From positions 41,766-105,765 of the forward strand of contig CAJFTT010000044.1 in the NCBI GenBank assembly GCA_904420005.1: a stretch of 64,000 nt of DNA. Direction: 5' to 3'. This DNA comes from Candidatus Tabaqchalia intestinavium. GTDB lineage: Bacteria > Bacillota > Clostridia > Oscillospirales > CAJFTT01. Below, piece after piece: positions 5,632-61,430 of the stretch. The position numbers and the translations under genes were made by a program. Positions within the stretch are counted from its first letter, which is position 1; each line of letters starts with the position of its first letter. Below the pieces are notes generated by a model. It ran no database searches and was not told where the DNA came from. It was given only the letters and a program-made list of their open reading frames with translations.

Positions 5632-5790
5632 GGCGCGCCCGCGCACTCGGCAGACACCTCGTTTTGTGAAAAAACCGGAAGGACTCATTCTGGCGCGCCC
5701 GCACACTCGGCGGGCATCGGCACGCCGTCCGGCTGCGGCCTTGTCCGTGCCCCTTCCCTTCCACCGCTGGGGCCATAGAGTTTTTCGGGA
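5632..5790. repeat. Degenerate CRISPR-like units, period about 60 nt
   Basis: GGCGCGCCCGCGCACTCGGCAGAC at 5632 and GGCGCGCCCGCACACTCGGCGGGC at 5692 match at about 21/24. A weaker unit CCCTTCCCTTCCACCGCTGGGGCCATAGAG lies near 5750. Further decayed units run across 5120-5900. Confidence 0.35.
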
Positions 5791-6014
5791 GGAAACCGGG
5801 CGCAGGCCCTGCTGACGAGGAGCCCGGGCGCTCGCCCGCGAGAGAAAAAACGCGGCCGGGCGTCTGCTTGCCCCCGAAAAACCGTGGTTCCCTTGCGTCC
5901 GCCGAGGGTATGAAATTCCGATACCATAAGAAAAGCGCGGTGATGCGGTTCATACGTCCGCACGATCGTTAAAAGTTTTTTACCTGCGGAGAAATGAAAA
6001 TTCCGGTCGGTTGC

Positions 6015-9652: not shown

Positions 9653-10040
9653 GCAGTTCCGTCCCGCACCGCGGGGCAGACTTTACCATGACAGCTACAG
9701 CGCCAAATATCGGGTTTCCTCCCCGCGCCGCGGGGCATAATAAAGGTTTGCCACAGATAAGGCGGGGACGGGTTCCATCCCCGCGCCGCGGGGGCAGACC
9801 GGTTCCGTCTACGCCATGGATTCGTGTGCCCGGTTTCCTCCCCGCACGGCGGTGACAGACTCGTATGCAGCAACGGCTGCACCGGACGAACCAATTCCAT
9901 CCCCGTGTTACAGGGGGCATAACCTTAGAACCCACGACAGCGCCGTTGACAGGTTCCCTCCCCGCGTTGTGTGGGGCAGACTTCCGGCTCTTTTTTTCCG
10001 TTGGCGAGTGAGTAATTCCTTCCTCGCGCCGCGTGGACAC
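9653..10040. CRISPR. Degenerate orphan CRISPR-like array, 7 units, type I-E-like geometry
   Basis: Units end at 9681, 9740, 9799, 9860, 9921, 9981 and 10040, a spacing of 59-61 nt. Approximate consensus is GGTTYCCTCCCCGCGCCGCGGGGCAGAC. The minus strand reads GTCTGCCCCGCGGCGCGGGGATGGAACC, close to the canonical I-E repeat. Spacer-like segments are AT-richer (for example 9682-9711). Weaker units extend back to about 8950. Confidence 0.5.
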
Positions 10041-17268: not shown

Positions 17269-17657
17269 AGCCCGCCGGGCAGCCGGCAACTGCCAGAAAG
17301 GGACCGCGGCGCAGCGCCGGGTCCCTTTTTCCGTTGGTATGCCGGCGGCGGGGCGGAGTCTGGCCCGTGTGCGGCTTTGGCCGCGGCCCCGCTGCGCCCG
17401 CGCGGCGGGGGGCAAGCGTGCGGTCAGTTCTGTGGCCTGCCGTGAGCGCTATCCCCTGTCCGGCCTCACGCCGGATCAGGGGATAGCGCGTGCTTACATC
17501 GGGACAGGACGCGCTTTTCTCCGTTGGGGGAATGGGGCCGCGATGCGCTTCGCCGCTGTGAGGCCCCGCCTGAACGGGCGCGCGGATGGGGAGCTGCGTT
17601 CGTGTCTGCAGGGGTGCGCATTTGCCGGCTGCGCACTGCCTCTGCCGCGCGCAGCTC

Positions 17658-18180
17658 TGTTTTCCCCGCGCTTGCAGGGGGGCGGCGCGCGGCATTCTCC
17701 ATTTACAAAGCCTGCGGCGCTTTCTCCTGCGCCTGCGGGGGCGGATTTCTTTGCACCCTACCGTGTGGCGGTCGTTACTTACTTTCCCCTGCGCCTGCAG
17801 AGGAGATTACAACTCCTTCGTTCTGCCATCCTTCGACGCTTACTTTCTCCGCGCCTGCGGAGGAGATTGCAGCGCCGCCCCGCGAGCGGCGGCGCTGATC
17901 CTTTCCTGCTTTTTCACCCGGCGCGCAACGGCTCGCCCGCGCAGGCTTTCCTGGCAGCAAGGTTCCGCGGCCTCCTGCCCGGACGCGCTATGTCTGCCCG
18001 CGCAGGCTCCGCCGGGGCAGGGCAATGGAAAAAAGCCGGGCGCTGGTTGACCCCGCCCGCCGCGCTGCCGAGGTCGATGCGGGGAAAGCGGTTGTCTCCA
18101 CCCGCGCGGCGGCGCCGGGTCTTTTGGTAGAACGCCGCCATCTGAGCTGGTTTCCTCCAGCCGCACGCGGCGGCGCCCAG
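17658..18180. CRISPR. Degenerate CRISPR-like cluster (about 9 units, 58-62 nt period)
   Basis: TTT(C/T)C motifs lie at 17660, 17721, 17783, 17844 and 17902. Units include GTTTTCCCCGCGCTTGCAGGGGGGCGGC, CTTTCTCCTGCGCCTGCGGGGGCGGAT, CTTTCCCCTGCGCCTGCAGAGGAGATT and CTTTCTCCGCGCCTGCGGAGGAGATTG. Later units are progressively decayed. Confidence 0.4.
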
Positions 18181-23580: not shown

Positions 23581-24837
23581 ATGTCGATGACCATGACGCA
23601 GAAAATCCTGGCGCGCGCCGCCGGGCTGGAGACGGTGGAAGCCGGCCAGCTCGTGATGGCCAAGCTCGACCTCGTGCTCGGCAACGATATCACCGCGCCC
23701 GTGGCGATTCGGGAATTCGAGAAGCTGGGCGGCCGGGTGTTCGACCGGCGCAAGATCGCGCTGGTGCCCGATCATTTCACGCCCAACAAGGACATCAAAA
23801 GCGCCGTGCAGGCCAAGGCGCTGCGCGATTTCGCCGTCCGGCAGGAGATCGAGCATTATTTCGAGGTCGGCCGCATGGGCATCGAGCACGCGCTGCTGCC
23901 CGAGCAGGGGCTCGTCACGGCGGGCGACTGCGTCATCGGCGCGGACAGCCATACCTGCACCTACGGCGCGCTGGGCGCGTTCTCCACGGGCGTGGGCAGC
24001 ACCGACATGGCCGCGGGCATGGCGACGGGGCAGTGCTGGTTCCGCGTGCCGGAGGCCATCGGCGTGCACCTGACCGGCGCGCTGCCGGCGCACGTCAGCG
24101 GCAAGGACCTCATCCTCACCCTCATTGGGCGTATCGGCGTGGACGGCGCGCGTTACTGCTCGCTGGAGTTTTTCGGCGAGGGGGTCGGCGCGCTGACGAT
24201 GGACGACCGCTTCACCGTCGCGAACATGGCGGTCGAGGCGGGCGCCAAGAACGGCATCTTCCCCGTGGACGCGGCGACGCGGGCCTATCTCGCGGCGGCG
24301 GACGCCCGCGCGCCGGCGGAGGTTTCCGCCGATGCGGACGCGCCTTACCGGGAGATCGTGGAGATCCGCCTCGATGCGCTCACGCCGACGGTGGCGTTCC
24401 CTCATCTGCCCTCCAACGCGCGCCCCGTGCGCGAGGCGGGGGAAGTGCCGATCGACCAGGTGGTCATCGGCTCCTGCACCAACGGGCGGCTCAGCGACAT
24501 GCGCGCCGCGGCCGAGGTGCTGCGCGGCCGGCGCGTGCATCCGCGCGTGCGGTGCATCGTCATCCCCGCGACCCAGGCGGTGTGGATGGCCTGCGTGCGG
24601 GAGGGGCTGATGGACGTGTTCGTGCAGGCGGGCGCAGCGGTTTCCACGCCGACCTGCGGGCCCTGTCTCGGCGGGCATATGGGGATCCTCGCGCCGGGCG
24701 AGCGCTGCGTCGCGACGACCAACCGCAACTTCGTCGGCCGTATGGGCGACCCGACGAGCGAGGTCTATCTCGCGTCGCCTGCTGTCGCGGCGGCATCCGC
24801 CGTCGCGGGGCGCATCGTCGGGCCGGACAGCCTGTGA
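23581..24837 (+). CDS. leuC: 3-isopropylmalate/homoaconitate dehydratase-family large subunit (no small-subunit gene adjacent)
   Basis: 418 aa of the aconitase family. Fe-S ligand motifs GADSHTC, GSCTNGR and CGPCLG are present. Confidence 0.8.
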
Positions 24838-25208
24838 GAAAAAGGAGACTGGCGCCGCTTTCCCGGAGATCCCGGGCCGGGCGGCGCTTTGCATTTGCCT
24901 GCCCGTGGGCCGTGGAAAGAGGCGCGGGCCGAACCGCGTTTGTCCAGCGCCCTTCTCTGCTTCCGCGGGGATGCTTTCTCCTCCCTGTCCCGGGGCGGGG
25001 ATGTTGTACTTTTCCGCATGCATACGCGGCGGCGCGCCGGGCTCAGGGCCCGCGCCGCCCCTTTTTGCACTGCGGAAGCAGGAAGCGCCGTCCTCTCGCC
25101 CGTACCCGGCGCGGCGGCGGTAAAATTCGGATGAATACGGCAAGCCCACGCCCGGCACAGCCATTCCCGGCAGCCGGCGAACGGGGCGCGAAGGAAGGAG
25201 GGCACAAG

Positions 25209-25799
25209 ATGAAGGAACTGACCGCGCGGCAAAAGCGCGTGCTGGACTATCTCACCGCCCGCGCGGCGGAAGGCGTTTCCCCCACGGTGCGGGAGATCGG
25301 CGCGGCGCTGGGCATCGCGTCCACCTCCACCGTGTCGCGCGACCTGCGCGCGCTGCAGGAGCGCGGCTGCCTGACGAAAACCGGCCGCGTCAGCCGCGGG
25401 ATCTCCCTGCCGCTGCCGGCTGTCGCGCTGGTGCCGGTGTATGCCTATTACAACCCGGAAACGGGCGTCGGCAGCGGCCTGACGGGGGACCGGGTTCCCT
25501 TCCCCGCCCCGCGCGAGGCGCGGCCGGAATATTTCGCGCTGCGTCTGCCGGCCCCGGTGCGGGAGATCCCCGACGCGCAGGCGGGCGACGTGCTCGTGTT
25601 CGAGAAGCTGTACCGGGCGCGGCACGGACAGGTTGTCGCGGCTTCGGTGGGCGGCGTGCTCGTCGCGGGGGTGATGCAGCGGCAGGCGCGCGGCGCGTGG
25701 GTGCTTTCGGACGGCTGGCGGCATTCGCTGGCCGGCGAGGAGGACGTCGCGCTGGTCGGCGTGCGCGTGGGCCTGCTGCGGCAGTATCCGGCCGACTGA
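25209..25799 (+). CDS. LexA-like transcriptional regulator with degenerate (apparently non-catalytic) S24 domain
   Basis: The N-terminus MKELTARQKRVLDYLTARAAEGVSPTVREIGAALGIASTSTVSRDLRALQERG is a classic LexA DNA-binding domain. The C-terminal half aligns loosely to S24 but has no Ala-Gly site, no GDSM serine and no conserved Lys. Strong GGAGGG RBS. The track ORF from 23544 is a spurious extension. Confidence 0.7.
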   Translation: MKELTARQKRVLDYLTARAAEGVSPTVREIGAALGIASTSTVSRDLRALQERGCLTKTGRVSRGISLPLPAVALVPVYAYYNPETGVGSGLTGDRVPFPAPREARPEYFALRLPAPVREIPDAQAGDVLVFEKLYRARHGQVVAASVGGVLVAGVMQRQARGAWVLSDGWRHSLAGEEDVALVGVRVGLLRQYPAD

Positions 25800-25861
25800 G
25801 GCGCGCGCGGCGCTGCGTGCCGCGGTACCCTCGGCGGACCAGAGGCGGCGCGCGTCAGGGC

Positions 25862-26012
25862 CGGAACGACCCCTGGCGTGCGGGTGTACCTTTCCCAGCT
25901 GGTTCGCCCGGCGCAGCCATTGCGGAACGACCCCTGGCGTGCGGGTGTACCCCAAGGAGCGCAGGAATCGGTGGACAAATCCAAGGAACGGCCCCGGATG
26001 TGCGGGCGCACC
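25862..26012. CRISPR. Mini CRISPR-like array: 3 repeats of 29 nt and 2 spacers of 32 nt
   Basis: CGGAACGACCCCTGGCGTGCGGGTGTACC occurs identically at 25862-25890 and 25923-25951. A third unit, AGGAACGGCCCCGGATGTGCGGGCGCACC (25984-26012), matches at 22/29. All are exactly 61 nt apart. More decayed units follow to about 26300. No cas genes in the window. Confidence 0.6.
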
Positions 26013-26536
26013 AGGCAGGCGTGTGCCCGCACGCCCTGCTGCGGCCTTGCCTCACGTCCATTGCCGCTTGCCCCGGGCCTGGGATCCGGGCATCCGCGCG
26101 GATCGCTGACACCAAGCCCCTCGTCTGCCTTTTGCGCCGGGGGCTGTGAGGGAAGACCGCAGAGAAAGGCGCCCCTCCGTATCTGCCCTGCCTTTGCGGG
26201 AGTCCGTGGCGGATCGTAGGCCGTTGTGGAAGCCATGCAGGTACTTCCCTTTTCTGGCGCGAGGCCGTGGCCTTTGAGGCTATCCTGGAACCCAACGGCT
26301 CCTCCCGTGGGGAATTCAGGAGGCAAACGGGCGGCCGGCAGGGCGGACGCGGCAAGCAGACGCGCCCGGCGGGCGATCGGGGATCCCGCCGGCCTTCCCC
26401 GGCTCGGGGCAAGCCGGCGCATGGGTGCTTTCGGGCGGCTGGCGGCATTCGCTGGCCGCTGAGGAAAACACGGCTGCCGATTTGCCGCCGCCCAAGCCGC
26501 AATTCCCTTTGCCCACCGAGCCGGCCGCCTGCAAGA

Positions 26537-26572
26537 AAAAGCGCCGCCGCCCGAAGCGGGCAGCGGCGGGAC
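26537..26572 (-). terminator. Terminator-like hairpin downstream of trxA
   Basis: The minus strand reads CGCCGCTGCCCGC ttcg GGCGGCGGCG, followed by CTTTTTCTT. Confidence 0.5.
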
Positions 26573-26627
26573 GAAGCCTGGCGGAGACTGCCGCGAAGCG
26601 CGGACATCCGCGGCGGCGGGCAGCGCG

Positions 26628-26945
26628 TCAGGGACGCAGCAGACGCACCAGCGTGGCCTTGTCCTGCACGCCGACGAGGCGGCCGCCCGGCCGCCCCTCG
26701 CGGAAAACGAGCACCGTCGGCACGGAGAGCACGCCGAAGCGGCTGGCAAGCTCCGGCTGCTCGTCGATGTTGACCTTGCCGATGACGGCGCTGTCTCCCA
26801 GCTCGCGCGCGGTTTCCTCCAGGACGGGCGCGAACATGCGGCAGGGGCCGCACCAGGCGGCCCAGAAGTCCAGCAGCACCGGCACGGCGCTCTGCTCGAC
26901 GGTCTGGGTGAAATTTTCCTTTGTCACGGTGATGGGCATCGTCAT
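26628..26945 (-). CDS. trxA: Thioredoxin
   Basis: WCGPC active site. 105 aa. Confidence 0.9.
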   Translation of the reverse strand: MTMPITVTKENFTQTVEQSAVPVLLDFWAAWCGPCRMFAPVLEETARELGDSAVIGKVNIDEQPELASRFGVLSVPTVLVFREGRPGGRLVGVQDKATLVRLLRP

Positions 26946-27193
26946 TCTCCTTCCTTCCCGGCGACCGACCCTCGACGGGATTCGCGCCGTTTTGGTTGCG
27001 TTTTTTTCAGCCTTGTGCTAGCATGGATGGGGATGGGCGCGGCCTTGGAGGGCGCGCGGCTGTGCCCGCGGCGCGCCGGGCGTTTCCCGGCGGCGAGCTG
27101 CGCCGACAGGGCGGGACGCCGCGAACCGCGCTGCCTGTAGTTTTCCCCGAATGCAGCCAAATTTACCTGAATTTACGGAAAGAAGGGCTTTTC

Positions 27194-28117
27194 ATGCAAC
27201 AGCAGCAGGATCTGATCATCGCGGGATCCGGCCCGGCCGGCCTTGCCGCCGCGGTCTATGCCGCGCGGGCGCGCATGCGCTTTTTCGTGCTGGAGGAGAA
27301 CGACTTCAGCGGCGGGCAGATCATCAATACCTATGATGTGGACAATTATCTCGGCCTGCCGGGGATCGGCGGCTTTGACCTCGCGATGAAATTCCGCGAA
27401 CACGCCGACAAATTCGGCGCGCAGTTCGTGCAGGACCGCATGACGGCGGCGCGCCGCGAGGACGGGCAGATCGTCGTGCAGGGAGAGAAGGCGCAATACC
27501 GCGCCCGCGCGCTGCTGGTGGCGACCGGCGCGCGGCACCGCAGGCTTGGCTGCCCGGGCGAGGCGGAATTCTCCGGGCGCGGCGTGAGCTATTGCGCGAC
27601 CTGTGACGGCGCGTTTTTCCGCGGGAAGGACGTCGCGATGGTCGGCGGCGGGGACACGGCGCTCGAGGAGGCGGCCTTCCTGGCGAACCTGTGCGCGCGG
27701 GTTTATCTGCTGCACCGGCGCGACGCGCTGCGCGCTTCCAAGCATCTGCAGGAGCGGGTGCTGGCCCTGCCCAATGTCGAGGTGCTGTATGAGACGACCG
27801 TGCAGGAGATCTTCGGCGGCGAGGCGGTCGAGGGCATCCGTGTGCTGCGGCGCGGCCGGGCGGAGGAGATCCCGCTCTCCGGCGTGTTCATCGCGGTGGG
27901 GATGGAGCCTAACAGCGAGCCGCTGCGCGGCGTGACGGCGCTCGACAGCGCAGGCTTCATCGTCGCGGGGGAGGACGGGGCGACCTCCGTCCCCGGTATT
28001 TTCGCCGCCGGCGACGTGCGCACCAAGGCGCTGCGCCAGATCCTCACGGCGGCGGCCGACGGCGCGAACGCCATCCGCTCGATCGAGCGGTACCTGCTCG
28101 GCGGCCCGGCCCGCTGA
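27194..28117 (+). CDS. trxB: Thioredoxin-disulfide reductase
   Basis: Contains IIAGSGPAGLAAA, the redox-active CATCDG motif and GGGDTALEEA. Start taken at ATG 27194 (MQQQQDL). The track ORF start at 26996 is an extension. Confidence 0.9.
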   Translation: MQQQQDLIIAGSGPAGLAAAVYAARARMRFFVLEENDFSGGQIINTYDVDNYLGLPGIGGFDLAMKFREHADKFGAQFVQDRMTAARREDGQIVVQGEKAQYRARALLVATGARHRRLGCPGEAEFSGRGVSYCATCDGAFFRGKDVAMVGGGDTALEEAAFLANLCARVYLLHRRDALRASKHLQERVLALPNVEVLYETTVQEIFGGEAVEGIRVLRRGRAEEIPLSGVFIAVGMEPNSEPLRGVTALDSAGFIVAGEDGATSVPGIFAAGDVRTKALRQILTAAADGANAIRSIERYLLGGPAR

Positions 28118-39136: not shown

Positions 39137-39400
39137 GGTTCCCGGACCTGCGGGGGCACGCATCCCGCCGTTCTTGAACGCCTTGTAAAACTGGTTCATT
39201 CCCCAGACCTGCGGGGGCACGGCGATCCGCCGCACGCCTCATTCATACGCGTTCGATCCCCAGGCCCGCGGGAAACGGGCTTTGCCGGCTCTGGCCGTCG
39301 GAAAGCAAGCGCATCGGTCCCCGAACCTGCGGGGGACGGGCGTACAGCTATCGCCTTTGCAAAGGCATATGTTTCTCGCTCCCCGGCCATAAAGGCGGGC
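39137..39400. CRISPR. Degenerate orphan CRISPR-like array (5 clear units)
   Basis: Units are GGTTCCCGGACCTGCGGGGGCACG (39137), CATTCCCCAGACCTGCGGGGGCACG (39197), CGATCCCCAGGCCCGCGGGAAACGG (39254), CGGTCCCCGAACCTGCGGGGGACGG (39315) and CGCTCCCCGGCCATAAAGGCGGGCGG (39377). Spacing is 58-61 nt. Spacer-like segments have ordinary mid-GC composition, for example CATCCCGCCGTTCTTGAACGCCTTGTAAAACTGGT. Confidence 0.5.
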
Positions 39401-41715: not shown

Positions 41716-41726
41716 AAATAAGACAA

Positions 41727-41878
41727 CTGAACAGACGGGAGCTTGTAAGACAGGCTGAGAGGAAGGTGTGACCTTCGACCGGTAACCTGATTTGGATAAT
41801 GCCAACGTAGGGAAAGCTGCGCATAAAGGGAATGCTTGCGGGAAGCTGCCAGATCGGTGGCTTCCCGCATTTGTTTTG
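41727..41878 (+). ncRNA. TPP (THI-box) riboswitch with terminator expression platform
   Basis: The aptamer carries GGGAGC...GCTGAGA...ACC...AACCTGATTTGGATAATGCCAACGTAGGGAA. The terminator stem GCGGGAAGC / GCTTCCCGC (41838-41868) is followed by ATTTGTTTTG. It lies directly upstream of thiS. Confidence 0.85.
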
Positions 41879-43527: not shown

Positions 43528-44781
43528 ATGGAAAATCAATTTTTTGTGGATTCGGGCCATCTGTCTGCCGAAGCGCTGGCCAGAAAGCACCGGCTGGAAA
43601 ACGACCCGGCCTCTCGGACCAGCCCGATGGAATATTTGCCGGGGATGGAAAAGATCGAATCGGAGGTTTGCGCCAATGTCATCAAACAGATGCAAGCCTT
43701 TGATTATTCGGTCTATACGGCAAAAGATGTAAAAGCCGCGCTGGATCACGAGACCTGCACTCTGGAGGATTTCAAAGCCTTGCTGTCGCCTGCGGCGGAG
43801 CCTTTCCTCGAGCAGATGGCGCAGAGGGCGAGGATAGAAACAGGCAAGCATTTCGGCAATACCGTCTATCTGTTCACCCCGCTCTATATTGCCAATTACT
43901 GTGAGAATTATTGCGTTTATTGCGGCTTCAACTGCTATAACCATATTCATCGCATGAAACTGACGATGGAGCAGATCGAGCACGAAATGAAAGTGATCGC
44001 GGACAGCGGCATGGAGGAGATCCTGATTCTCACCGGGGAGAGCCGCGCGCAGAGCGATGTGCCTTATATCGGAGAAGCCTGCAAGCTGGCGAGAAAATAT
44101 TTCCGCATGGTCGGCCTGGAGATCTATCCGGTCAACACGGACGAATACCGGTTCCTCCATGAATGCGGCGCGGACTATGTTACCGTTTTCCAGGAGACCT
44201 ACGATGTGGAGAAATACGAGCAACTGCATCTTTCGGGCCACAAGCGCGTATGGCCTTATCGCTTTGACGCGCAGGAGCGCGCGCTGCGGGGCGGTATGCG
44301 CGGCGTAGCGTTTTCGGCGCTGCTCGGCCTTTCGGATTTCCGCAAGGATGCCCTGGCCAGCGCGCTGCATGTGTACTACTTACAGCGGAAATATCCTTAC
44401 GCGGAAATGTCGCTGTCCTGTCCACGCCTTCGCCCGATCATCAACAACGACAAGATCAATCCCCTGGACGTCCATGAAAAGCAGCTTTGCCAGATTCTTT
44501 GCGCTTACCGGATTTTCCTGCCCTTTGTCGGCATTACCGTTTCTTCCCGCGAGAGCGCCGCGTTCCGCAACGGGATTGTGAAGATTGCCGCGACAAAAGT
44601 TTCCGCCGGCGTGTCGACGGGCATCGGCGATCATGAGAGCAAATACAGCGGAAAGGAGTCGGACGGGATGCAGGGCGACGAGCAATTTGAAATCGACGAC
44701 AGCCGCAGCCTTGAAAGCATGTACCGCGATATCGCCGAAGAAGGTTTGCAGCCCGTTTTGAATGATTACCTGTATGTCTGA
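43528..44781 (+). CDS. thiH: 2-iminoacetate synthase (radical SAM)
   Basis: CENYCVYCGF (CxxxCxxC motif). 417 aa. Operon context supports the call. Confidence 0.9.
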   Translation: MENQFFVDSGHLSAEALARKHRLENDPASRTSPMEYLPGMEKIESEVCANVIKQMQAFDYSVYTAKDVKAALDHETCTLEDFKALLSPAAEPFLEQMAQRARIETGKHFGNTVYLFTPLYIANYCENYCVYCGFNCYNHIHRMKLTMEQIEHEMKVIADSGMEEILILTGESRAQSDVPYIGEACKLARKYFRMVGLEIYPVNTDEYRFLHECGADYVTVFQETYDVEKYEQLHLSGHKRVWPYRFDAQERALRGGMRGVAFSALLGLSDFRKDALASALHVYYLQRKYPYAEMSLSCPRLRPIINNDKINPLDVHEKQLCQILCAYRIFLPFVGITVSSRESAAFRNGIVKIAATKVSAGVSTGIGDHESKYSGKESDGMQGDEQFEIDDSRSLESMYRDIAEEGLQPVLNDYLYV

Positions 44782-45364
44782 TATTCTCTGCGTGACCAAT
44801 CGGAAGCTCTGCGCGGAAGACTTCCGGACCCGCATCGAGAAAATCGCCCGCGCGAAGCCCGCGGGGATTATCCTGCGGGAGAAAGATCTGTCCGAGACCG
44901 AATACAGAACGCTGGCGGCAGACGTGCTGTCTATCTGCAGGCGATATGACGTACCGTGCATCCTGCACAGCTTTGTCCGTGTGGCGATCGCCTTGGAGGC
45001 GCCGGCCATTCATCTGCCGCTGCCGCTGCTTTCGCAGCTCGGGGAGGACGACAAGGCGCGCTTTTCCGTCATCGGCGCTTCTTGCCATTCGGTCGAAGAG
45101 GCGCAGGCGGCCGCGCGCATGGGCTGCACCTATGTGACTGCCGGCCACGTGTTTGAAACCGGATGCAAAGCCGGTCTGCCGGGGCGGGGGCTGGATTTCC
45201 TGAAGGCGGTATGCGGGAGCGTCTGTGTTCCCGTATATGCCATCGGCGGCATCCGGGCCGAAAAGATCGCCGCGGTCCGGCAGTGCGGAGCAGAAGGCGC
45301 CTGCGTGATGAGCGGCGCCATGACGTGTGACGATGTCCAGGAATATTTGGGAGCGTTTGTATGA
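44774..45364 (+). CDS. TMP-TenI family protein (ThiE paralog; possible TenI-like thiazole tautomerase)
   Basis: MSDILCVTNRKLC... and ILREKDL are typical of the ThiE/TenI fold. It overlaps the thiH stop (ATGTCTGA). The alternative start is the ATG at 44762. Confidence 0.7.
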   Translation: MSDILCVTNRKLCAEDFRTRIEKIARAKPAGIILREKDLSETEYRTLAADVLSICRRYDVPCILHSFVRVAIALEAPAIHLPLPLLSQLGEDDKARFSVIGASCHSVEEAQAAARMGCTYVTAGHVFETGCKAGLPGRGLDFLKAVCGSVCVPVYAIGGIRAEKIAAVRQCGAEGACVMSGAMTCDDVQEYLGAFV

Positions 45365-46020
45365 AATTTAGCAAAGACATGCTGCTGCTTTATGCGGTCA
45401 CCGACCGCAGCTGGGCGGGCGGACAAACTTTCTATGCGCAGCTGGAGGCCGCGCTGCGGGGCGGCGCGACTCTCGTCCAGCTTCGCGAAAAAACGCTGGC
45501 AGAGGACGCGTACCTGGCGGAAGCGGTGCAGGTAAGGGCGCTTTGCCATCGATACGATGTACCTCTGATCGTCAATGACAATGTGGACGTGGCGCTCAAA
45601 AGCGGCGCGGACGGCGTGCATGTCGGTATGGAGGATACGCCCGTTTCCGAGATCCGCAGGCGAGCGCCAAGGGAATTCATCATCGGCGCGACCGCAAAAA
45701 CGGTAGCGCAAGCGCGCGCCGCGGAAAAAGCGGGGGCGGATTATATTGGCGTTGGCGCCGTTTTCCCATCTCCGACGAAGAAAAATGCGATTCGCATCAC
45801 CACGCAGCAGCTCAAAGAAATCTGTTGCTCGGTTTCCATCCCCGCCGTTGCGATCGGGGGGATCTGCCTTGAAAATATGATGGAGATAGAAGGCGGCGGT
45901 ATGGCGGGGATTGCCGTTGTATCTGCGATCTTTGCCGCCGACGATATACAGCAGGCGACTGCCCAGCTCAAAGAAAAGGCAAAAGCGGTGGTGCGGCAGG
46001 ATCGAGGGGGAATCCTTTGA
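45361..46020 (+). CDS. thiE: Thiamine-phosphate diphosphorylase
   Basis: Contains LLLYAVTDRSW and LVQLREK. ATGA overlap with the previous gene. 219 aa. Confidence 0.85.
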   Translation: MKFSKDMLLLYAVTDRSWAGGQTFYAQLEAALRGGATLVQLREKTLAEDAYLAEAVQVRALCHRYDVPLIVNDNVDVALKSGADGVHVGMEDTPVSEIRRRAPREFIIGATAKTVAQARAAEKAGADYIGVGAVFPSPTKKNAIRITTQQLKEICCSVSIPAVAIGGICLENMMEIEGGGMAGIAVVSAIFAADDIQQATAQLKEKAKAVVRQDRGGIL

Positions 46021-46216
46021 CCCGGCCGGGGCGCGGTGGAGATCGGAGGCACGCCGATTCGCGCAATCCAGTATTGGCGGGGGATTAAGTTGGAAAGTGA
46101 TTGCAATGGGAGGGGCTTTGGGAGTAAGATAAAGCCATAGCAACCAAGCGGCAGACCGGGGGCACCACTCTCTGTCGCTCTATAAAAGTAATGCGATACC
46201 ATCAGAAAGGAGCAAA

Positions 46217-47023
46217 ATGATGAGAACAGCATTATCCATCGCGGGCAGTGACTCCTGCGGAGGCGCCGGCATTCAGGCGGACATCAAAACCATGACGATG
46301 CATGGCGTCTATGCCATGAGCGCGATCACAGCCCTCACGGCGCAAAACACGACCGGCGTTCGGGGCGTGCAGGAGTCCTCTCCGGCCTTCTTAAAAGCGC
46401 AGATCGACGCTGTTTTTGAGGACATTTTCCCCGATGCAGTCAAGATCGGCATGGTTCCTTCGGCAGCGCTGATCCGGGTGATCGCCGACCGGCTCCGGTT
46501 CTATGCGGCGAGCAATATTGTGGTCGATCCCGTTATGGTGTCCACCAGCGGCGCAAAGCTGATGGAAACCGATGCGGTATCCACGCTGACGCGGGAACTG
46601 TTGCCCTTGGCGACCCTCGTTACACCCAATATTCCCGAAGCGGAGGTTCTATCTGGCATCCCTGTCTGCGACAAAGAAGAGATGCAAACAGCGGCCAGAC
46701 GGATTGGCGATGCCTATGGCTGCGCTGTGCTGGTCAAAGGCGGGCACAGCGTCAGCGACGCCAGCGATTTTCTGTATGCAAACGGGGAATGCCGCTGGCT
46801 GGAAGGGCGGCGCATTGCCAATCCCAACACACACGGTACGGGCTGCACGCTGTCTTCCGCCATCGCCGCCAACCTTGCCAAGGGGTTTGACCTTGCTGAA
46901 TCCGTAAAAAGAGCCAAGGATTATCTATCCGGCGCGCTGGCCGCGATGCTGGATCTGGGGAAGGGTTCAGGACCGATGCAACATAACTTTGATCTGAACA
47001 GCCGCTTTGCCGATGAGGCGTAA
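46217..47023 (+). CDS. thiD: Hydroxymethylpyrimidine/phosphomethylpyrimidine kinase
   Basis: ALSIAGSDSCGGAGIQADIKT motif. 268 aa. AAGGAG RBS. Confidence 0.9.
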   Translation: MMRTALSIAGSDSCGGAGIQADIKTMTMHGVYAMSAITALTAQNTTGVRGVQESSPAFLKAQIDAVFEDIFPDAVKIGMVPSAALIRVIADRLRFYAASNIVVDPVMVSTSGAKLMETDAVSTLTRELLPLATLVTPNIPEAEVLSGIPVCDKEEMQTAARRIGDAYGCAVLVKGGHSVSDASDFLYANGECRWLEGRRIANPNTHGTGCTLSSAIAANLAKGFDLAESVKRAKDYLSGALAAMLDLGKGSGPMQHNFDLNSRFADEA

Positions 47024-47053
47024 TACGATCGGATGAGAAAGGAGATCGACAGG

Positions 47054-48358
47054 ATGAGAAATTATACAACGCAAATGGACGCTGCAAGAAGAGGCATCAT
47101 CACGCCGGAAATGAAGGCCGTTGCCGCCAAGGAGTACCGTTCGGAAGAAGAAATACGGGATCTTGTTTCCAGGGGCCAGGTTGTGATCTGCGCCAACAAG
47201 CTGCACACCTGCATCGAGCCCAACGGCGTAGGCTCCATGCTTCGCACCAAGATCAATGTTAACCTCGGCGTATCCCGTGACTGCAAGGATTACGACGTCG
47301 AAATGCAGAAGGTCATGGCGGCGGTGCATATGGGCGCGGAGGCGATCATGGATCTTTCCTCCCACGGCGATACCCGGCCCTTCCGCCGCAAGCTCACAAG
47401 CGAATGCCCCGCCATGATCGGGACCGTCCCGGTTTACGACAGCGTTATCCATTATCAGAGGGATCTGGCCACCCTGACGGCCAAGGACTTTATCGATGTC
47501 GTCCGGCTTCATGCGCAGGACGGCGTGGACTTTGTCACCCTGCATTGCGGCATCACGCGCAAGACCATTGAGCAGATCCGGAAACATAAGCGGAAAATGA
47601 ATATCGTGTCTCGCGGCGGCTCGCTCGTTTTTGCCTGGATGTGCATGACTGGCGAGGAAAACCCCTTTTACGAATATTTCGACGAGATTCTGGACATTTG
47701 CCGCGAATATGACGTCACCATTTCCCTCGGAGACGCCTGCCGGCCCGGCTGCCTGGCCGATGGCAGCGATGTCTGCCAGATCGAAGAGCTCGTCCGCCTC
47801 GGCGAGCTGACCAAGCGCGCCTGGGAGAAAGATGTGCAGGTTATGGTGGAGGGGCCCGGCCACATGCCGATGGATCAGATCGAGGCGAATATGAAGTTGC
47901 AGCAGACCATTTGCATGGGGGCGCCCTTCTATGTCCTCGGGCCGATCGTGACGGATATTGCGCCCGGCTATGATCATATCACATCGGCGATCGGCGGCGC
48001 GATCGCGGCGGCCGCGGGCGCGGCGTTCCTCTGCTATGTGACGCCCGCGGAGCATCTGGCGCTTCCCAATGTGGAGGATGTCAAGCAGGGCATCATCGCT
48101 TCCAGGATTGCGGCCCACGCGGCGGATATCGCCAAAAAGGTTCCCCATGCGAGGGATCTCGACGATGCGATGGCCGACGCCCGCAGAACCTTCGACTGGG
48201 AAAAGCAATGGGCGTGTTCCCTGGATCCGGAAACGGCCAAACGTATCCGCGAGGACAGGGCGCCGGAGCATGAGGACAGCTGCTCGATGTGCGGCAAGTT
48301 CTGCGCGGTGAGAAGCATGAATAAAGCGCTCAGCGGTGAATATATCGATATTTTGTAA
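47054..48358 (+). CDS. thiC: Phosphomethylpyrimidine synthase
   Basis: [20 protein letters not shown] is a typical ThiC N-terminus. C-terminal CSMCGKFC cluster motif. Start taken at ATG 47054 after GGAG; the track ORF starts at 47033. Confidence 0.9.
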
Positions 48359-49451: not shown

Positions 49452-50213
49452 AGGGCGCCTCCGTTCCTTGAAAATGATGCCGCCGGGCCGCGCGGCGGGA
49501 AAAGCAGGAAACCAGACGGCCAGGCAGGCACAGCGGCGGACACGGCAGCCGGAGAAATCTCCTCAGACGCAGCCTGGCCGGCGCAGCAGCGCCGCATGAC
49601 CGTTCAGGCCCGCAGGACTCCACCGTGGTCCGATGTCGGCGCGCTGTTGTCGCGCGGCAGTCGCCGGCTTGGCAGGGTTCCAGCCCGCGCCGTTTCACCG
49701 TTCCGGTTGTGTGGAAAAACGCGCCGTGGTCATCGGTGCATGCGTAGCCAGGCGATATATCTGCCGCCTGATGTCCAGCACAACAAGCCTGCCGCAGGGT
49801 AGCTCGAGACACGGCTGCCGGGCGGGCAGCTTTGGCATGGGCGCGCCGCCCCGACCAGCCGCGGCCCTGCCGCCCGCCTCAAGAAGGCATACTGCCAGGT
49901 TCGCGCAAATTACAAACCCATTCTTTCATAACCGCCCGGCTCTTTTGCGACCGGCGACCGTATCCGCCGCCTTGCCGCCCGATCCGCTCCGGCTGGCCGC
50001 GGGCGGCGGCAGCCGGGGGAATCCCGCCGGTGCAGCCTGGCCGGCGCAGCGGCGCCGAACACGCAGCTTCCCGTTCGGCACGGATTTTCCGCCGCGCACG
50101 CAGGCCACCGGATTCCTGCCGCCCACGGGGCGCTTTCCCTCCCGCGCAGCGCGCCGCTCGAATCCGGCAACATCGGCCAGCGGGCGGCATATATTGCTGT
50201 AACCGCCGGCGCG

Positions 50214-52812: not shown

Positions 52813-53096
52813 GACAAAAAAGCCTTTCGCCCCCAAGCGGGCGAAAGGCTTTCCCAACGCGGGCCGGCCGCGCAGCAGCATGAAAGGAGACGGCTTCGCC
52901 CGCCGGCCCGCGCGCATCCGGCCGGCGCAAACGCAGGCAACCAAAACGACAGAGCACGAAATACCGCCCCGCGCGCGTCCGGGCCGCGCTGATATTTTGG
53001 GGCCAAGGCAGTCCAGTATGGATGCCGCCCCGCGCTGCGCGGTCACTGCACGCCGCGGTAATACAGCCCGCGCGTATACGACGCAGGCGGGGTGGC
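52813..53096. repeat. Direct repeat copy 1 (about 284 bp) of the U32 peptidase 3' end plus its downstream region
   Basis: About 95% identical by eye to 57221-57509. It includes a minus-strand terminator (perfect stem AAAGCCTTTCGCCC / GGGCGAAAGGCTTT at 52819-52852, then TTTTTTGTC on the minus strand) and two CRISPR-like units. Confidence 0.85.
53043..53096 (-). pseudogene. Duplicated 3'-terminal fragment of the U32 peptidase gene
   Basis: Encodes ...TPPASYTRGLYYRGVQ*, identical to the C-terminus of the intact U32 gene ending at 57456. No upstream coding continuity. Confidence 0.7.
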
Positions 53097-57220: not shown

Positions 57221-57509
57221 GACAAAAAAGCCTTTCGCCCCCAAGCGGGCAAAAGGCTTTCCCAACGCGGGCCGGCCGCGCAGCAGCATGAAAAGGAGAC
57301 GGCTTCACCCGCCGGCCCGCGCGCATCCGGCCGGCGCAAACGCAGGTAACCAAAACGACAGAGCACAAAATGCCGCCCCGCGCGCGTCCGGGCCGCGCTG
57401 ATATTTTGGGTCCAAGGCAGTCCAGTATGGATGCCGCCCGCCCCGCGCTGCGCGGTCACTGCACGCCGCGGTAATACAGCCCGCGCGTATACGACGCGGG
57501 CGGGGTGGC
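57221..57509. repeat. Direct repeat copy 2 (about 289 bp): native 3' end of the U32 gene plus downstream region and terminator
   Basis: Matches 52813-53096. It contains the U32 stop at 57456 and the minus-strand terminator hairpin at 57227-57260. Confidence 0.85.
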
Positions 57510-59552
57510 GCCCGTCTCATACTGCGCGATGACGCGCGCCGCCTCCTGCGCGCTTTCTGTCGTGAAATACAACCGGCCGAAGCGCAGCCCCGCCGCGGCG
57601 AACGCCTCCAGCCGGTCGGCGAGGAACAGCGCGCGGCAGTTGAGCAGCTCGGCATAGCCGTGATGGCAGACAAGCGGGAAACGCTCTCCGCGCCGGTCGG
57701 TGAGGGCCTTCGGCCCGTCGCCCGCCCGGCAGCCGGCGCAGCCCGCCTCGCCGGAGAAGGGGCAATTGCGCAGCAGCATCGCGGGCAGCCGGCCATAGAC
57801 GATGGCCCCGCATTCGCCCTCGACGCAGTCGGCCAGCTGCGGCAGCGTCAGCTCAAACGACAGCAGCGCGCGCTCCAGTCCCATCGCGCGGTAAGCCCGC
57901 AGCGCGGCGAGGTTGACCAGATTGAGGCCGTAATCGCCGTCCGGCGCCAGTCCTGCGGCGCGCACGGCCTCAATCTGGCCGAGATTGCCGCAGACGGCGC
58001 GGGTCACGCCCAGCCCCGCGACGGCTTCCAGCGCCCGCGCCTGGCGCGCCGCGTCGGCCTCCCCGAGGCACAGCGGCGGCAGCTCGGCGGCGAGCGTGAC
58101 CCCCTGCGCCGCGAGCGCGCGCGTCTTTTCCGCCTCGCGGGCCAGCGCCTCGAGCGGAAGGAGCACCCGCGCGCCGGCTGGCAATGCATCCGGGACGCCG
58201 CGCCAGTCGGCGAAGCGATATTCCAGCGCAAGCGGCGCGGCTGCGCGTCCCTTTTCCGGCTTCGGGAGCGCAGCGTCCCGCCAGGGCCGGGACTGCGGCT
58301 GCGCCCGCCGGGCCTGCAAGGCTTCGAGCGCTTCCCGCCGCAGGGCGTTGAGCGCAGACAAACGCAGGGCGAGCCCGTCGTCCAGCGCGACCTGCATTTC
58401 CCGGGCAAAGAAGGGCGTGCCGCCCGTTTTCGCCAACGCCTCCCGCACGCGGCCGGGCTCGGTCGCCCGCTCGCGCGCCGGCTCCGGCGCTTCGCCCTCC
58501 GCCCGCGCGGCAAAGCCCGTCTCCCCATCCGTCGCCGTGAGGGCGACCGGCTCCCCCCGCCGCGCCGTCAGGGAGAAATCCACCGGAATGCGCGGCAGCT
58601 CGCCGCGCAGGTAGGTATTGACCTTGCCGAACGCCGCCTTCGCGCCGGCCGCGTCCTCCTCCCGGCGCACGCCGAACATCGTGCCGCCGCGCCGTCCCTC
58701 GAAATAGCCGTCGGTGAACCCCTGCCGGGAGAACACCGCGCGCAGCAGGGCCTGCTCCTCCTCGGTGATCTCCTCCCCGCGCAGCGCCTTGCGGCACAGC
58801 AACGTCGCCGCCGCGACATATTCCGGGCGTTTCATGCGTCCCTCGATCTTGCAGCTCGCGACGCCCAGCGCCGCCAGCTCCGGCAGCCGGCGCACGAGGG
58901 AGAGGTCCTTGAGGCTGAGCGCATGCTCGCGGCCGCCGGCGGAAAACGGCAGGCGGCAGGCCTGCGCGCACAGGCCGCGGTTGCCGCTGCGCCCGCCGAT
59001 GAGGGCGCTGAGATAGCACCGGCCGCTGACCGACATGCACAGCGCGCCGTGCACGAACACCTCCAGCTCCATCTCCGGCACGGCGGCGTGGATCTCCGCG
59101 ATCTCCGCCCGGCTGAGCTCCCGCGCCAGCACCACGCGGCGCATCCCCAGCGCGGCGGCCGCCCGCGCGCCCGCCGCGTTATGCACCGCCATCTGGGTGG
59201 ATGCGTGCAGCGGCAGCGACGGCGCGCGCTCGCGCACGCAGGCCGCGAGCCCCAGATCCTGCACGATCAGCCCGTCCACGCCGCACTCGGCGCACAGGCG
59301 CGCCAGGCGCAGCGCCTCCGGCAGCTCGCGCTGCCGCACGAGGGTATTGAGCGTAACAAAAAGCCGGACGCCCCTGCCATGGCAAAACGCCACCGTGTCC
59401 GGCAAATTCTGCGATGTGAAATTCTCCGCGCTGCGGCGCGCGTTGAAGCCCTCCAGGCCGAGATAGACCGCGTCTGCCCCCGCGCGCACCGCCGCCTGCA
59501 GCGAAGCGGGCCCGCCGGCCGGCGCGAGGATCTCCGGCCGCGCCGCCGTCAT
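57456..59552 (-). CDS. U32 family peptidase (long form)
   Basis: Starts MTAARPEILAPAGGPASLQAAVRAGADAVYLGLEGFNARRSAENF, a typical U32 N-terminus. ATGA overlap with the zapA stop. The track ORF to 60311 is an extension. Confidence 0.85.
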   Translation of the reverse strand: MTAARPEILAPAGGPASLQAAVRAGADAVYLGLEGFNARRSAENFTSQNLPDTVAFCHGRGVRLFVTLNTLVRQRELPEALRLARLCAECGVDGLIVQDLGLAACVRERAPSLPLHASTQMAVHNAAGARAAAALGMRRVVLARELSRAEIAEIHAAVPEMELEVFVHGALCMSVSGRCYLSALIGGRSGNRGLCAQACRLPFSAGGREHALSLKDLSLVRRLPELAALGVASCKIEGRMKRPEYVAAATLLCRKALRGEEITEEEQALLRAVFSRQGFTDGYFEGRRGGTMFGVRREEDAAGAKAAFGKVNTYLRGELPRIPVDFSLTARRGEPVALTATDGETGFAARAEGEAPEPARERATEPGRVREALAKTGGTPFFAREMQVALDDGLALRLSALNALRREALEALQARRAQPQSRPWRDAALPKPEKGRAAAPLALEYRFADWRGVPDALPAGARVLLPLEALAREAEKTRALAAQGVTLAAELPPLCLGEADAARQARALEAVAGLGVTRAVCGNLGQIEAVRAAGLAPDGDYGLNLVNLAALRAYRAMGLERALLSFELTLPQLADCVEGECGAIVYGRLPAMLLRNCPFSGEAGCAGCRAGDGPKALTDRRGERFPLVCHHGYAELLNCRALFLADRLEAFAAAGLRFGRLYFTTESAQEAARVIAQYETGATPPASYTRGLYYRGVQ

Positions 59553-59917
59553 TCGGAAACTTCGCCCAGGCGCGCGAGCTTGACCTTGAGCACCTGGATC
59601 TGCTGATTGAGGCGGTTGATCTCCCGCCGCGCCTCGTCGACCTCCATGCGGGCGCGCCCCGCTTCCTCGACATAGCCCTTGATCTGCGCGCGCAGGTTGT
59701 CCGCGCCGCTCTCCGCCTTCTTGCTGCGGTCGCAGAATTCCAGCGCCGCGAACACCGCCGCGACGGTCGTGGAAATCTGCTCGTTGGACTGCATCATTTT
59801 GGTGATGTACGCGTCGACCTCCTCGCCGATGCTGAGGATATAGGACGTCTCCTCGTCCGCGGACACGGCGTATTCCGCGCCGCCGATCACCATCGTCACG
59901 CGATTTTTCTCCTGCAT
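59549..59917 (-). CDS. zapA: Cell division protein ZapA
   Basis: NRVTMVIGGAEYAVSADEETSYI is followed by a C-terminal coiled coil. AGGAGG lies 9 nt upstream of the ATG at 59917. Confidence 0.8.
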   Translation of the reverse strand: MQEKNRVTMVIGGAEYAVSADEETSYILSIGEEVDAYITKMMQSNEQISTTVAAVFAALEFCDRSKKAESGADNLRAQIKGYVEEAGRARMEVDEARREINRLNQQIQVLKVKLARLGEVSE

Positions 59918-60180
59918 GCTGCGCATCCTCCTTGCTGCTATCATCAGCCCGCCGGGGCCATCCCCACGGGCGTTGTTTCTGTCTTTTATTATATACTGTT
60001 TTCCGGGGAAAGAAAAGAGGTATTTTTATCTTTTTCGACAGAATCGGGCGCCGGGCGGCGGCGTTATTTCCCCCTCCGGGCGGCCGGCGCGCAGCCTTGG
60101 GCAAAGGGCCGCTGCGCCCCGGCGGGCGCATCTCCGCGCCGCCGGGGCGGGCCGGCGGAACCGCATCCGGCGGCAAGCGG

Positions 60181-60390
60181 GCCGCAATCCCACGCGGGCG
60201 CGGGCAGGGGGAGCAGGCCCGGTCCGGGGAACGCACGGAAATCGCGCAAGCCCAAGCGGGCGGGCGCGCCTGGTGCTTTCCCCGCCCGGATGGAGGGAGG
60301 CGCAATCCCACACAGGCGGGGCAGGCCGCCGCTCCTCAAAGGCAAGTTTGCCCTCAACCGGCGCAATCCCGTACGGGCGGGGTGGGCTGC
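60181..60390. CRISPR. Degenerate CRISPR-like units upstream of the GNAT gene
   Basis: GCAATCCC-type units lie at 60184, 60245 (GCAAGCCC), 60302 and 60363, a spacing of 57-61 nt. Examples are GCGCAATCCCACACAGGCGGGGCAGG and GCGCAATCCCGTACGGGCGGGGTGGG. Confidence 0.4.
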
Positions 60391-60619: not shown

Positions 60620-61159
60620 ATGCAGTTCACCCTTGTTCCCTGGCGGGAGGAATTCATCGACGACATCGCGCACTTTGCCGACAACCCGCGCATCGCGCAG
60701 AACCTGCGGGACGTGTTCCCCTATCCCTATACCCGCGCCGACGCCGAAGGCTATATCCGCGAGTGCATCGCGCACGGCGACGAAGGGCAGCTGTGCCGCG
60801 CCATCGTCATCGACGGGCGCGCGGCGGGCAGCGTGGGCCTGTTCCGGCAGACGGACGTCGCGCGCTGCAGCGCCGAGCTGGGATACTGGCTGGCGGAGGA
60901 TTATTGGGGCCGGGGCGTGATGACCCAAGCGGTGCGGCAGATCACAGCCGCGGGATTTGCGCAGCTGGGGGTCGTTCGCGTGTTCGCGACGCCCTTCGCC
61001 ACCAACCGCGGCTCGCAGCGCGTGCTGGAGAAAGCGGGCTTCCGTCTCGAGGGCGTGCTGGAAAAAAGCGTCTATAAAAACGGTCGGCTGCTGGACAGCT
61101 GCCTTTATGCCCGCATTGCGCCGGGCGCGCAGGAGATGCCGGAACGCGGGCGTGGATAG
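60620..61159 (+). CDS. GNAT family N-acetyltransferase (RimJ/RimL-like)
   Basis: Contains ELGYWLAEDYWGRGVMTQAV and NRGSQRVLEKAGFRLEG, the acetyl-CoA-binding region typical of this subfamily. 179 aa. Confidence 0.85.
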   Translation: MQFTLVPWREEFIDDIAHFADNPRIAQNLRDVFPYPYTRADAEGYIRECIAHGDEGQLCRAIVIDGRAAGSVGLFRQTDVARCSAELGYWLAEDYWGRGVMTQAVRQITAAGFAQLGVVRVFATPFATNRGSQRVLEKAGFRLEGVLEKSVYKNGRLLDSCLYARIAPGAQEMPERGRG

Positions 61160-61181
61160 AGCGTCCGGCGGGAAGCGGGCC

Positions 61182-61430
61182 GCAATCCCACGCGGGCGCG
61201 GGCAGGGGAGAAGCCGGCCTCGGCCCCTCGCTCCGGCGGCGGGCATGCGGCAGCCGGGCGGAACGCGGGATACCAAAGAGGGACGCCGTCTTCCTCCGGG
61301 CGTGCGCAATAGGATGCACGTGCCGGGCCAGCGCAGCGTGGCCAGGCCCACGCGGGCGTGGGCTAACGCTGCACGGCGCTCCATCCCCGGCAACACGTGG
61401 GGGTATTCCCCGGCAGCGCGGGCAAAACAT
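61182..61430. repeat. Degenerate CRISPR-like units downstream of the GNAT gene
   Basis: GCAATCCCACGCGGGCGCGGGCAG (61182) is identical to the unit at 60184. Weaker units follow, for example GGCCAGGCCCACGCGGGCGTGGGCT (61341) and TATTCCCCGGCAGCGCGGGCAAAAC (61404). Confidence 0.3.

Follow-up and report, generated by a model that had tools for sequence, protein, structure and literature searches.

A most likely orphan and partly decayed CRISPR-type mini-array downstream of a lexA-like gene in Candidatus Tabaqchalia intestinavium

The stretch of DNA analysed here, in the following called the window, comprises 64 kb (64,000 nucleotides (nt)) of contig CAJFTT010000044.1 from Candidatus Tabaqchalia intestinavium. 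Its G+C content is 64.8%, and that of its non-coding DNA, which accounts for about 26% of the window according to a rough gene map, is 65%. At the locus of interest, a lexA-like gene for a protein of 196 amino acids (25209-25799, plus strand) and a thioredoxin gene (26628-26945, minus strand; Pfam Thioredoxin with an expectation value (E) of 1.4e-28) are arranged convergently. The DNA between them (25800-26627) showed no coding signature, and its open reading frames (ORFs) gave no Pfam match. It holds a mini-array of short repeats (25801-26012, the focal array), two copies of a GC-rich hairpin unit and the second copy of a 51-nt direct repeat, the first copy of which lies inside the lexA-like gene. 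The far boundary of the non-coding region is formed by an intrinsic-terminator-like hairpin of the thioredoxin gene (26542-26568, minus strand), which comprises 12 pairs and a T-run. The focal array is most likely an orphan, partly decayed array of the CRISPR type (short palindromic repeats that are clustered and regularly interspaced) with four repeats and three unique 32-nt spacers in a strict 61-nt register.

The core of the focal array consists of the 29-mer CGGAACGACCCCTGGCGTGCGGGTGTACC, which occurs at 25862-25890 (repeat R1) and 25923-25951 (repeat R2) with a match of 29/29, and of a third copy at 25984-26012 (R3) that matches at 22/29. The starts of these repeats are 61 and 61 nt apart, so that spacers S1 (25891-25922) and S2 (25952-25983) are both exactly 32 nt long. 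These features had been named in a preliminary description of the locus and were confirmed in full. Allowing up to three mismatches, the window has no further site for the 29-mer, and two matches were obtained in 0 of 100 shuffles. The edges of identity are sharp and the adjoining flanks are unmatched. By checking each position of the 61-nt register, a fourth, degenerate unit was found at 25801-25829 (R0), in exact register and beginning 2 nt past the TGA stop codon of the lexA-like gene (25797-25799). It matches the 29-mer at 16/29 overall and at 13/16 in its 3' half; a score of at least 16 is reached at 0.17% of the window positions. Spacer S0 between R0 and R1 (25830-25861) likewise comprises 32 nt and has a G+C content of 81%. 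The spacers of the focal array are mutually unrelated; S1 is unique in the window, and S2 is unique as well and bears no relation to S1. A tandem repeat resembling mycobacterial interspersed repetitive units or variable-number tandem repeats was therefore rejected, since the spacers are unrelated and Tandem Repeats Finder reported nothing at 25800-26020.

To the right of the array, the 3' half of R3 is complementary to 26020-26031, forming a 12-bp inverted repeat including one G-T pair. A hairpin of R3 was considered and rejected, as the predicted fold does not surpass that of shuffles. The GC-rich hairpin unit TCCCCGGCTCGGGGCAAGC (26396-26414, plus strand) directly adjoins the second copy of the 51-mer, and its inverted copy (26066-26084, minus strand) matches it at 17/19; the pair of 19-nt units encloses 311 nt. 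Together with its flanks (26390-26418), the unit shows a weak likeness to the type I-E repeat of Escherichia coli, at the 98.5th percentile.

For the focal region, nine contigs from independent metagenome assemblies were available, with an identity of 99.8-100% over the portions that each of them covers. The focal array is identical in all nine, and since these contigs are independent and near-identical, the structure is real and no assembly artefact. A further strain with 95% identity (contig L054) has kept spacer S1 and shows one change in R1, from A to G at position 8; this contig stops at the start of the second repeat. Contigs retrieved with TrxB as the query cover the region from 26711 onward only. 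The contigs of five independent assemblies terminate within 3 nt of 26023 and of 26383-26385. Strain variation at these points was considered and rejected: both lie inside local GC-rich inverted repeats, and because of this position in palindromes the clustered ends are probably assembly breaks rather than strain junctions.

The 61-nt spacing is not restricted to the focal array. In a scan of the window with 25-nt blocks, at least 20 matching positions and fixed lags of 30-129, the lags 57-62 gave 13 matches in 11 loci, seven of them at exactly 61, compared to 0-2 matches for any other lag. In 770 kb of unrelated bacterial loci, scanned for control, there was about one match per lag and no peak. 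The 11 loci start at 5182, 5627, 9656, 16386, 17719, 25856, 28345, 39133, 52902, 57310 and 60297. All of them are non-coding, and several arrays are positioned just past stop codons. Three of the loci can be wrapped at 61 nt into degenerate arrays of seven units (9655-10040), four units (17657-17870) and five units (39137-39400), with units that are 70-90% alike. These three arrays resemble the repeat of the E. coli K-12 CRISPR-I array (NC_000913; 29-mer CGGTTTATCCCCGCTGGCGCGGGGAACTC, spacing 61-62), which served as reference: of their 16 units, 14 rank in the 96th percentile or higher among the 29-mers of the window, reaching as far as the 100th, while the remaining two, C5 at 9892 and H5 at 39377, reach the 90th and the 56th percentile. 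Their presence in the same window may be taken as an indirect hint of an active or former Cas1-Cas2 integrase. The spacers of the three arrays (9684-10011, 17684-17841, 39164-39376) have a mean G+C content of 56% compared to 65% for non-coding DNA, which is a mild hint of a foreign origin.

For the arrays at 5182, 5631, 16386, 28345, 52896/57304 and 60176, the likeness to the E. coli repeat is at background level. These loci and the focal array at 25801 share an organisation in which a block of 26-33 nt recurs at a lag of 60-61 (57 at 5182) around unique sequence; at the six loci besides the focal one, the blocks have their own distinct sequences. The focal repeat went undetected with a profile derived from the three I-E-like arrays. 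Across the loci, the period is conserved and the motif is not. An extension of this finding, according to which all intergenic DNA would represent old array, was rejected, as little 61-nt periodicity was found outside the called arrays (z of 2.7 with the arrays included). About a dozen mini-arrays in a 61-nt register with locus-specific repeats within 64 kb were not found in the literature searched.

A comparison with another strain (98% identical; contigs L064 and L065, retrieved via SpoVG) revealed differences in the sister array at 17657-17870, which corresponds to L064:2499-2760. Relative to the window, this strain has one additional unit of 61 nt and lacks one unit of 60 nt. The additional unit comprises a unique spacer between two similar, non-identical repeats, and the missing one corresponds to 17791-17850. 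The sister array thus varies by whole repeat-spacer units, as CRISPR arrays do. Both differences can be explained by a repeat-by-repeat deletion from a longer ancestor.

An integration event would account for the geometry described above. The type I-E Cas1-Cas2 integrase makes staggered cuts over a target of about 29 bp, which becomes duplicated when a spacer of about 32 nt is inserted. To our knowledge, no process other than this spacer integration leaves a unique insert of about 32 nt between two copies of a target of about 29 bp; slippage, tandem duplication or unequal crossing-over would copy the spacers too. Since the spacers are unrelated, slippage and tandem duplication are disfavoured. 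The proposal of an insertion-like process made in the preliminary description is a fair one for the mini-array itself, that is, for a 29-nt duplication around a unique 32-nt insert, but not for the bracket formed by the 51-mer. Judged from the sequence, the focal array has a slightly better than even chance of being the product of a Cas1-Cas2 integrase of type I-E-like character, acting partly at non-canonical sites, and of now being in decay. For the arrays of the window as such, a derivation from a CRISPR integrase appears reasonably probable. Non-canonical or already drifted integration sites are assumed because the focal repeat does not resemble the I-E family, because it does not form a good hairpin, and because about ten loci each have their own repeat.

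The history of the focal locus could then be as follows. The first event would have taken place just past the stop codon of the lexA-like gene. R0 and R3 would be older, decayed units, and the identical pair R1/R2 would reflect the youngest event, which is probably older than the split from the 95% identical strain, because that strain also has S1. By now, the arrays would be shrinking through repeat-by-repeat deletion and point mutation. From the likeness to the E. coli repeat, the minus strand might be the transcribed one, which would make R0, abutting the gene, the leader-distal unit; this likeness is a weak guide. A more far-reaching scenario would be natural off-target integration on a large scale in this uncultured, Clostridia-like bacterium, with a I-E adaptation module that repeatedly seeded new mini-arrays (neo-CRISPR loci) closely downstream of genes all over the chromosome, so that growth and decay of arrays, together with patch duplications such as the 51-mer and the copy of about 285 nt described below, built much of the unusually long non-coding DNA. 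CRISPR adaptation would in that case be a source of intergenic DNA and of new arrays in nature. We regard this scenario as doubtful.

Several observations weigh against an origin by a CRISPR integrase. The focal repeat reaches only the 95th percentile in the comparison with the E. coli repeat, and no Rfam CRISPR-DR family was found for it at gathering or relaxed thresholds; the sole relaxed CRISPR-DR match in the window has an E of 3.7 and lies at 9893. The predicted fold of the focal repeat does not surpass that of shuffles, with z values of +0.28 and -0.90 compared to -3.59 for the E. coli repeat. An AT-rich leader or a promoter-like site was not found in 24800-27250; the flanks of the array are GC-rich, and the left side of R0 leaves only 1-2 nt to the stop codon of the lexA-like gene. 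No cas genes were found among 38 window ORFs scanned with Pfam (no family match for five of the 38), nor were any called in the 7 kb beyond the window (contig L075). The spacers, for two of which (S1 and S2) the preliminary description had suggested a BLAST search, gave no matches in phages, plasmids or viral contigs except at chance level (E of 0.5), in collections that probably lack the virome of this organism, and no self-targets of the spacers were found in the window. The strain differences at the sister array can both be read as deletions and so do not point to a recent acquisition. Degenerate units on both sides of the identical R1/R2 pair do not correspond to a leader-proximal polarity, and short-patch gene conversion could have homogenised R1 and R2.

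The focal array is not classed as a functional I-E array. Its geometry is that of type I-E, with repeats of about 29 nt at 25801, 25862, 25923 and 25984 and unique 32-nt spacers between them, two of the repeats being identical and the others matching at 22/29 and 16/29; the repeat family, the hairpin and the leader of such an array are lacking. The block of 29/32/29 nt with a sequence unlike the canonical repeat is the one expected of a neo-CRISPR locus, and an orphan or neo-CRISPR mini-array is the description that suits the locus best.

The array stands between two copies of a direct repeat, which the preliminary description had given as 50 nt long and had interpreted as a duplicated 3' end of the lexA-like gene. 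Alignment of the two copies in a self-comparison of the window established a direct repeat of 51 nt, at 25691-25741 (copy 1, plus strand) and 26415-26465 (copy 2, plus strand), with a match of 47/51, an identity of 92%, a BLAST E of 9e-14 and an offset of 724 nt. Copy 1 comprises codons 162-178 of the lexA-like gene, with a weaker similarity up to about 25750, while copy 2 is intergenic and non-coding, with a weak similarity extending to 26475. At the protein level, the likeness of copy 2 covers residues 162-181 (26416-26475; 16/20 identical) and ends there. On either side of the copies, the similarity scores of the flanks were no higher than those of shuffles. The bracket is therefore real, with one copy in the gene and one outside, but it is not the 3' end of the gene that is duplicated: copy 1 is followed by 58 nt, corresponding to 19 codons and the stop codon (25742-25799), which encode DVALVGVRVGLLRQYPAD.

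This tail identifies the native copy. The product of the lexA-like gene contains a LexA DNA-binding domain (Pfam LexA_DNA_bind, E of 2e-14) and a LexA-like C-terminal barrel, and aligns end to end with the solved LexA 8s7g_A (E of 5e-9). The tail aligns with the terminal strand of this structure and has a G+C content at third codon positions of about 0.84-0.9, as the rest of the gene, whose codon signature is strong (G+C of 0.78/0.52/0.89 by codon position). Beyond copy 2, neither LexA similarity nor codon bias was found. Since the tail after copy 1 matches the last LexA strand and keeps the codon bias of the gene, copy 1 is native and copy 2 ectopic. The protein itself gave no Pfam match to Peptidase_S24, its TIGR00498 score is under the cut-off, and in the alignment to 8s7g_A no Ser/Lys catalytic motif (Ser nucleophile and dyad) is visible. 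Because of the missing Peptidase_S24 match and dyad, the LexA-like protein is probably non-cleavable.

Both copies of the 51-mer were present in the same arrangement in all four contigs that span them (L053, L055, L056 and L057; one each from different samples, all of the same species). An empty site with a single 51-mer, for which the preliminary description had proposed to look in related strains, was not found among these four, which are a small sample from one species. No integrase, transposase or reverse transcriptase was found in the 674-nt segment between the copies or among the scanned ORFs. Two further origins of the pair were tried and rejected. A decayed tandem copy of the whole gene left nothing in tblastn and local flank alignment beyond residues 162-181. 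A diversity-generating retroelement was rejected because only one of the four mismatches (G/A, A/G, G/C and C/T) involves an adenine of the intergenic copy, a pattern that does not fit such an element, and because there is no reverse transcriptase among the scanned ORFs.

Altogether, the 51-mer pair is most likely a short ectopic copy of codons 162-178 (or 181), located about 0.7 kb downstream of the intact gene, and not a pair of attachment sites. A duplication by replication slippage or recombination had also been proposed. Of this, a recombination or duplication origin of the 51-mer is most likely, and the mechanism was inferred by exclusion. Short-patch templated repair or illegitimate recombination would be candidates, with low confidence for any specific mechanism.

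The 51-mer is a separate matter from the array and one of a class of patch duplications. In the self-comparison, four other non-coding places of the window showed duplications, which measure 41-52 nt and, in one case, about 285 nt, and because of these similar cases the 51-mer is not specific to this array. A direct patch of 52 nt (49543-49594 / 50007-50057) is 85% identical and lies in an intergenic region of 762 nt. Another of 48 nt (60163-60210 / 61161-61208) contains a mini-array repeat and surrounds a GNAT acetyltransferase gene (60620-61159), the second copy lying 2 nt past its stop codon. A third of 41 nt (61229-61269 / 62213-62253) begins 20 nt beyond the 48-mer and flanks about 0.94 kb of non-coding DNA; the same structure is present in another sample (L075). 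An integron cassette was considered for the repeat-flanked GNAT gene and was rejected by eye, as no attC core motifs are present. The copies of the duplication of about 285 nt (52813-53096 / 57221-57509) are 96-99% identical and 4.4 kb apart. Within this segment lie a hairpin resembling a terminator, a mini-array with three units at a 61-nt period, and the final 54 nt of a gene for a U32 peptidase (57456-60311, minus strand). One edge of the segment corresponds to the T-run end of the terminator on the strand of the gene, which fits a copy of an mRNA 3' end.

With both the bracket and the array described, the alternative explanations can be weighed. According to the preliminary description, a mobile element would have inserted site-specifically with reconstitution of its target: an element of about 674-724 bp would have entered the 3' part of the lexA-like gene and brought a replacement tail and the mini-array, with the 51-mers as attL and attR. 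The direct repeat with a match of 47/51, of which the gene contains one copy and the other follows 724 nt further downstream, would agree with this, as would the shared reading frame of both copies over about 20 codons. Nonetheless, the tail between the two copies represents the native terminal strand of LexA and has the codon bias of the gene, while the sequence past copy 2 is non-coding and unlike LexA. Furthermore, there is no recombinase among the scanned ORFs, the four contigs from other samples that span both copies all have an identical structure, the array does not occupy the centre of the supposed insert but keeps its register from a point 2 nt past the stop codon onward, and comparable patch duplications occur elsewhere without this gene. 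Three of the four defining features of an integrative element are lacking, and site-specific insertion is very improbable. Little thus remains of the specific claim that a duplicated gene end encloses an insert. For copy 2, a function could also be imagined, in which read-through from the thioredoxin gene would be antisense to the lexA-like codons 162-178 and would connect the LexA-like regulator with redox stress. The distance of copy 2 from the thioredoxin terminator, which it follows on the transcribed strand of that gene, is about 75 nt, it is 92% identical to the lexA-like gene with flanks that lack similarity, and the neighbourhood has a redox character (trx, trxB, a Fur-family regulator and rubrerythrin). 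However, the terminator is strong with its 12 pairs, similar patches occur elsewhere without any such logic, and no related species carry the lexA-like gene. A regulatory role of copy 2 is extremely improbable.

Concerning the array, the repeats could belong to dispersed elements of a non-CRISPR nature, so-called false-CRISPRs (STAR-like elements, repetitive extragenic palindromes (REP) and bacterial interspersed mosaic elements (BIME), or arrays of protein-binding sites), in which GC-rich palindromes would have clustered without Cas1-Cas2. The lack of cas genes in the scanned ORFs, of a leader and of spacer matches would be expected in this case, as would the fact that the focal repeat corresponds to no known CRISPR repeat and does not form a good hairpin; in addition, documented false-CRISPRs include STAR-like GC-rich repeats and many unexplained cases in GC-rich genomes (PMC5294841). 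STAR and REP elements, however, keep one motif genome-wide, whereas here the motif varies by locus and what stays constant is the period of 61 nt together with a block length of about 29 nt. Three arrays resemble a verified I-E repeat, the spacers are unique with Tandem Repeats Finder silent, and the scanned window ORFs yielded neither a RAYT nor any other transposase. A STAR-like or REP-BIME identity was rejected for the focal repeat itself, as the 29-mer is unique to its locus and the motifs of the clusters differ. Dispersed repeats are therefore an unlikely source. Another explanation would dispense with off-target integration: the arrays would be ordinary drifted remnants of canonical I-E arrays, and the 51-mer the last piece of an old tandem or segmental duplication. 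The visible decay of the I-E-like arrays at 9.7, 17.7 and 39.2 kb with units 70-90% alike, the loss of whole units between strains, and the sharp edges of the 51-mer, which fit slippage or recombination, are in line with it. On the other hand, two identical units unlike the I-E consensus would need a duplication after divergence, it would be unprecedented for 64 kb to hold about ten separate canonical arrays, and neither residual similarity beside the 51-mer nor a whole-gene tandem copy at the 724-nt offset could be detected. An origin by simple drift is quite unlikely. An integration by Cas1-Cas2, partly off target, remains the explanation we prefer for the mini-array, and a patch duplication that for the 51-mer.

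Further features of the neighbourhood were observed. The leuC gene (23581-24837) is not followed by leuD and leuB, unlike in the nearest relatives (L060 and L062); downstream of it there is a gap of 370 nt and then the lexA-like gene. On the other side, the thioredoxin gene is followed by trxB, the Fur-family regulator and rubrerythrin. Elsewhere in the window, an element of about 190 nt occurs twice in inverted orientation (5718-5904, plus strand; 36638-36456, minus strand; 78% identical). It has no Rfam match, and its predicted consensus fold, calculated from these two sequences only, contains a few compensatory pairs. A thiamine pyrophosphate (TPP) riboswitch was identified at 41725-41830 (Rfam 59 bits, above the gathering score), near genes for thiamine biosynthesis (44762-48358).

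The lineage appears isolated. For the LexA-like protein, a search of 5.8 billion proteins gave no homologues above 32% identity beyond its own cluster, and a scan of genome contigs gave distant LexA genes only (21-46% identity). The lineage was found neither in the genome collection, scanned with the LexA-like protein, nor in the metagenomes of the Joint Genome Institute (JGI), where a contig scan with a shared 23-mer yielded one chance match only. The nearest LeuC relatives are about 73% identical, and their loci are non-syntenic, compact and without lag-61 arrays.

If the preferred explanation is true, about a dozen mini-arrays of I-E geometry, differing in age and repeat within 64 kb, would be a natural record from which site preferences as well as the birth and death of arrays could be read. 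Should the genome turn out to contain a I-E adaptation module, this would provide a natural view of array birth via off-target integration. CRISPR finders would miss such loci or call them low-confidence or false, and it is the conserved period without a conserved motif that separates integrase products from compositional artefacts. How new CRISPR arrays originate is presented as an open question in the literature consulted, with one laboratory over-expression experiment as direct evidence besides circumstantial natural cases.

With integrative elements that target tRNA genes or gene ends (islands, prophages), the locus shares direct repeats of which one lies in a gene and one distal to the insert. 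It differs from them by its lack of an integrase, by an insert below 0.7 kb, by a repeat that lies within the gene instead of at its end, and by the absence of a displaced old tail; an empty site was not observed either. Orphan CRISPR arrays usually number one or few per genome. Like these and STAR-like false-CRISPRs, the focal array has no nearby cas genes, degenerate repeats, no observed turnover of spacers and GC-rich intergenic repeats. STAR-like elements, however, have one shared signature motif (Zhang & Ye 2017, PMC5294841), whereas the arrays of the window share the period only. The type I-E array of E. coli K-12 has the same 29-nt repeat and unique 32-nt spacer with a period of 61 nt (61-62 in NC_000913); a degenerate terminal repeat, the whole-unit loss at the sister array and the likeness of three window arrays to the E. 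coli repeat are further common features. In contrast to this system, the focal repeat has no stable hairpin of the Cas6e type, no Rfam CRISPR-DR family and no leader or promoter, there are no cas genes among the scanned ORFs, only two units are identical, and the 64 kb contain a dozen arrays whose repeats differ.

As described in papers that cite their work (bioRxiv 10.1101/148544, PMC7054753, PMC6698737), Nivala et al. (2018) demonstrated for E. coli that off-target Cas1-Cas2 integration spawns new arrays. According to these descriptions, neo-CRISPR loci are mini-arrays of the same kind at non-CRISPR sites, in which the repeat is duplicated local sequence, the geometry is set by the integrase and one to a few spacers are present. 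The cases described there originate from laboratory over-expression of Cas1-Cas2, with circumstantial natural ones, whereas the arrays of the window would represent many such loci, of different ages, in a natural genome.

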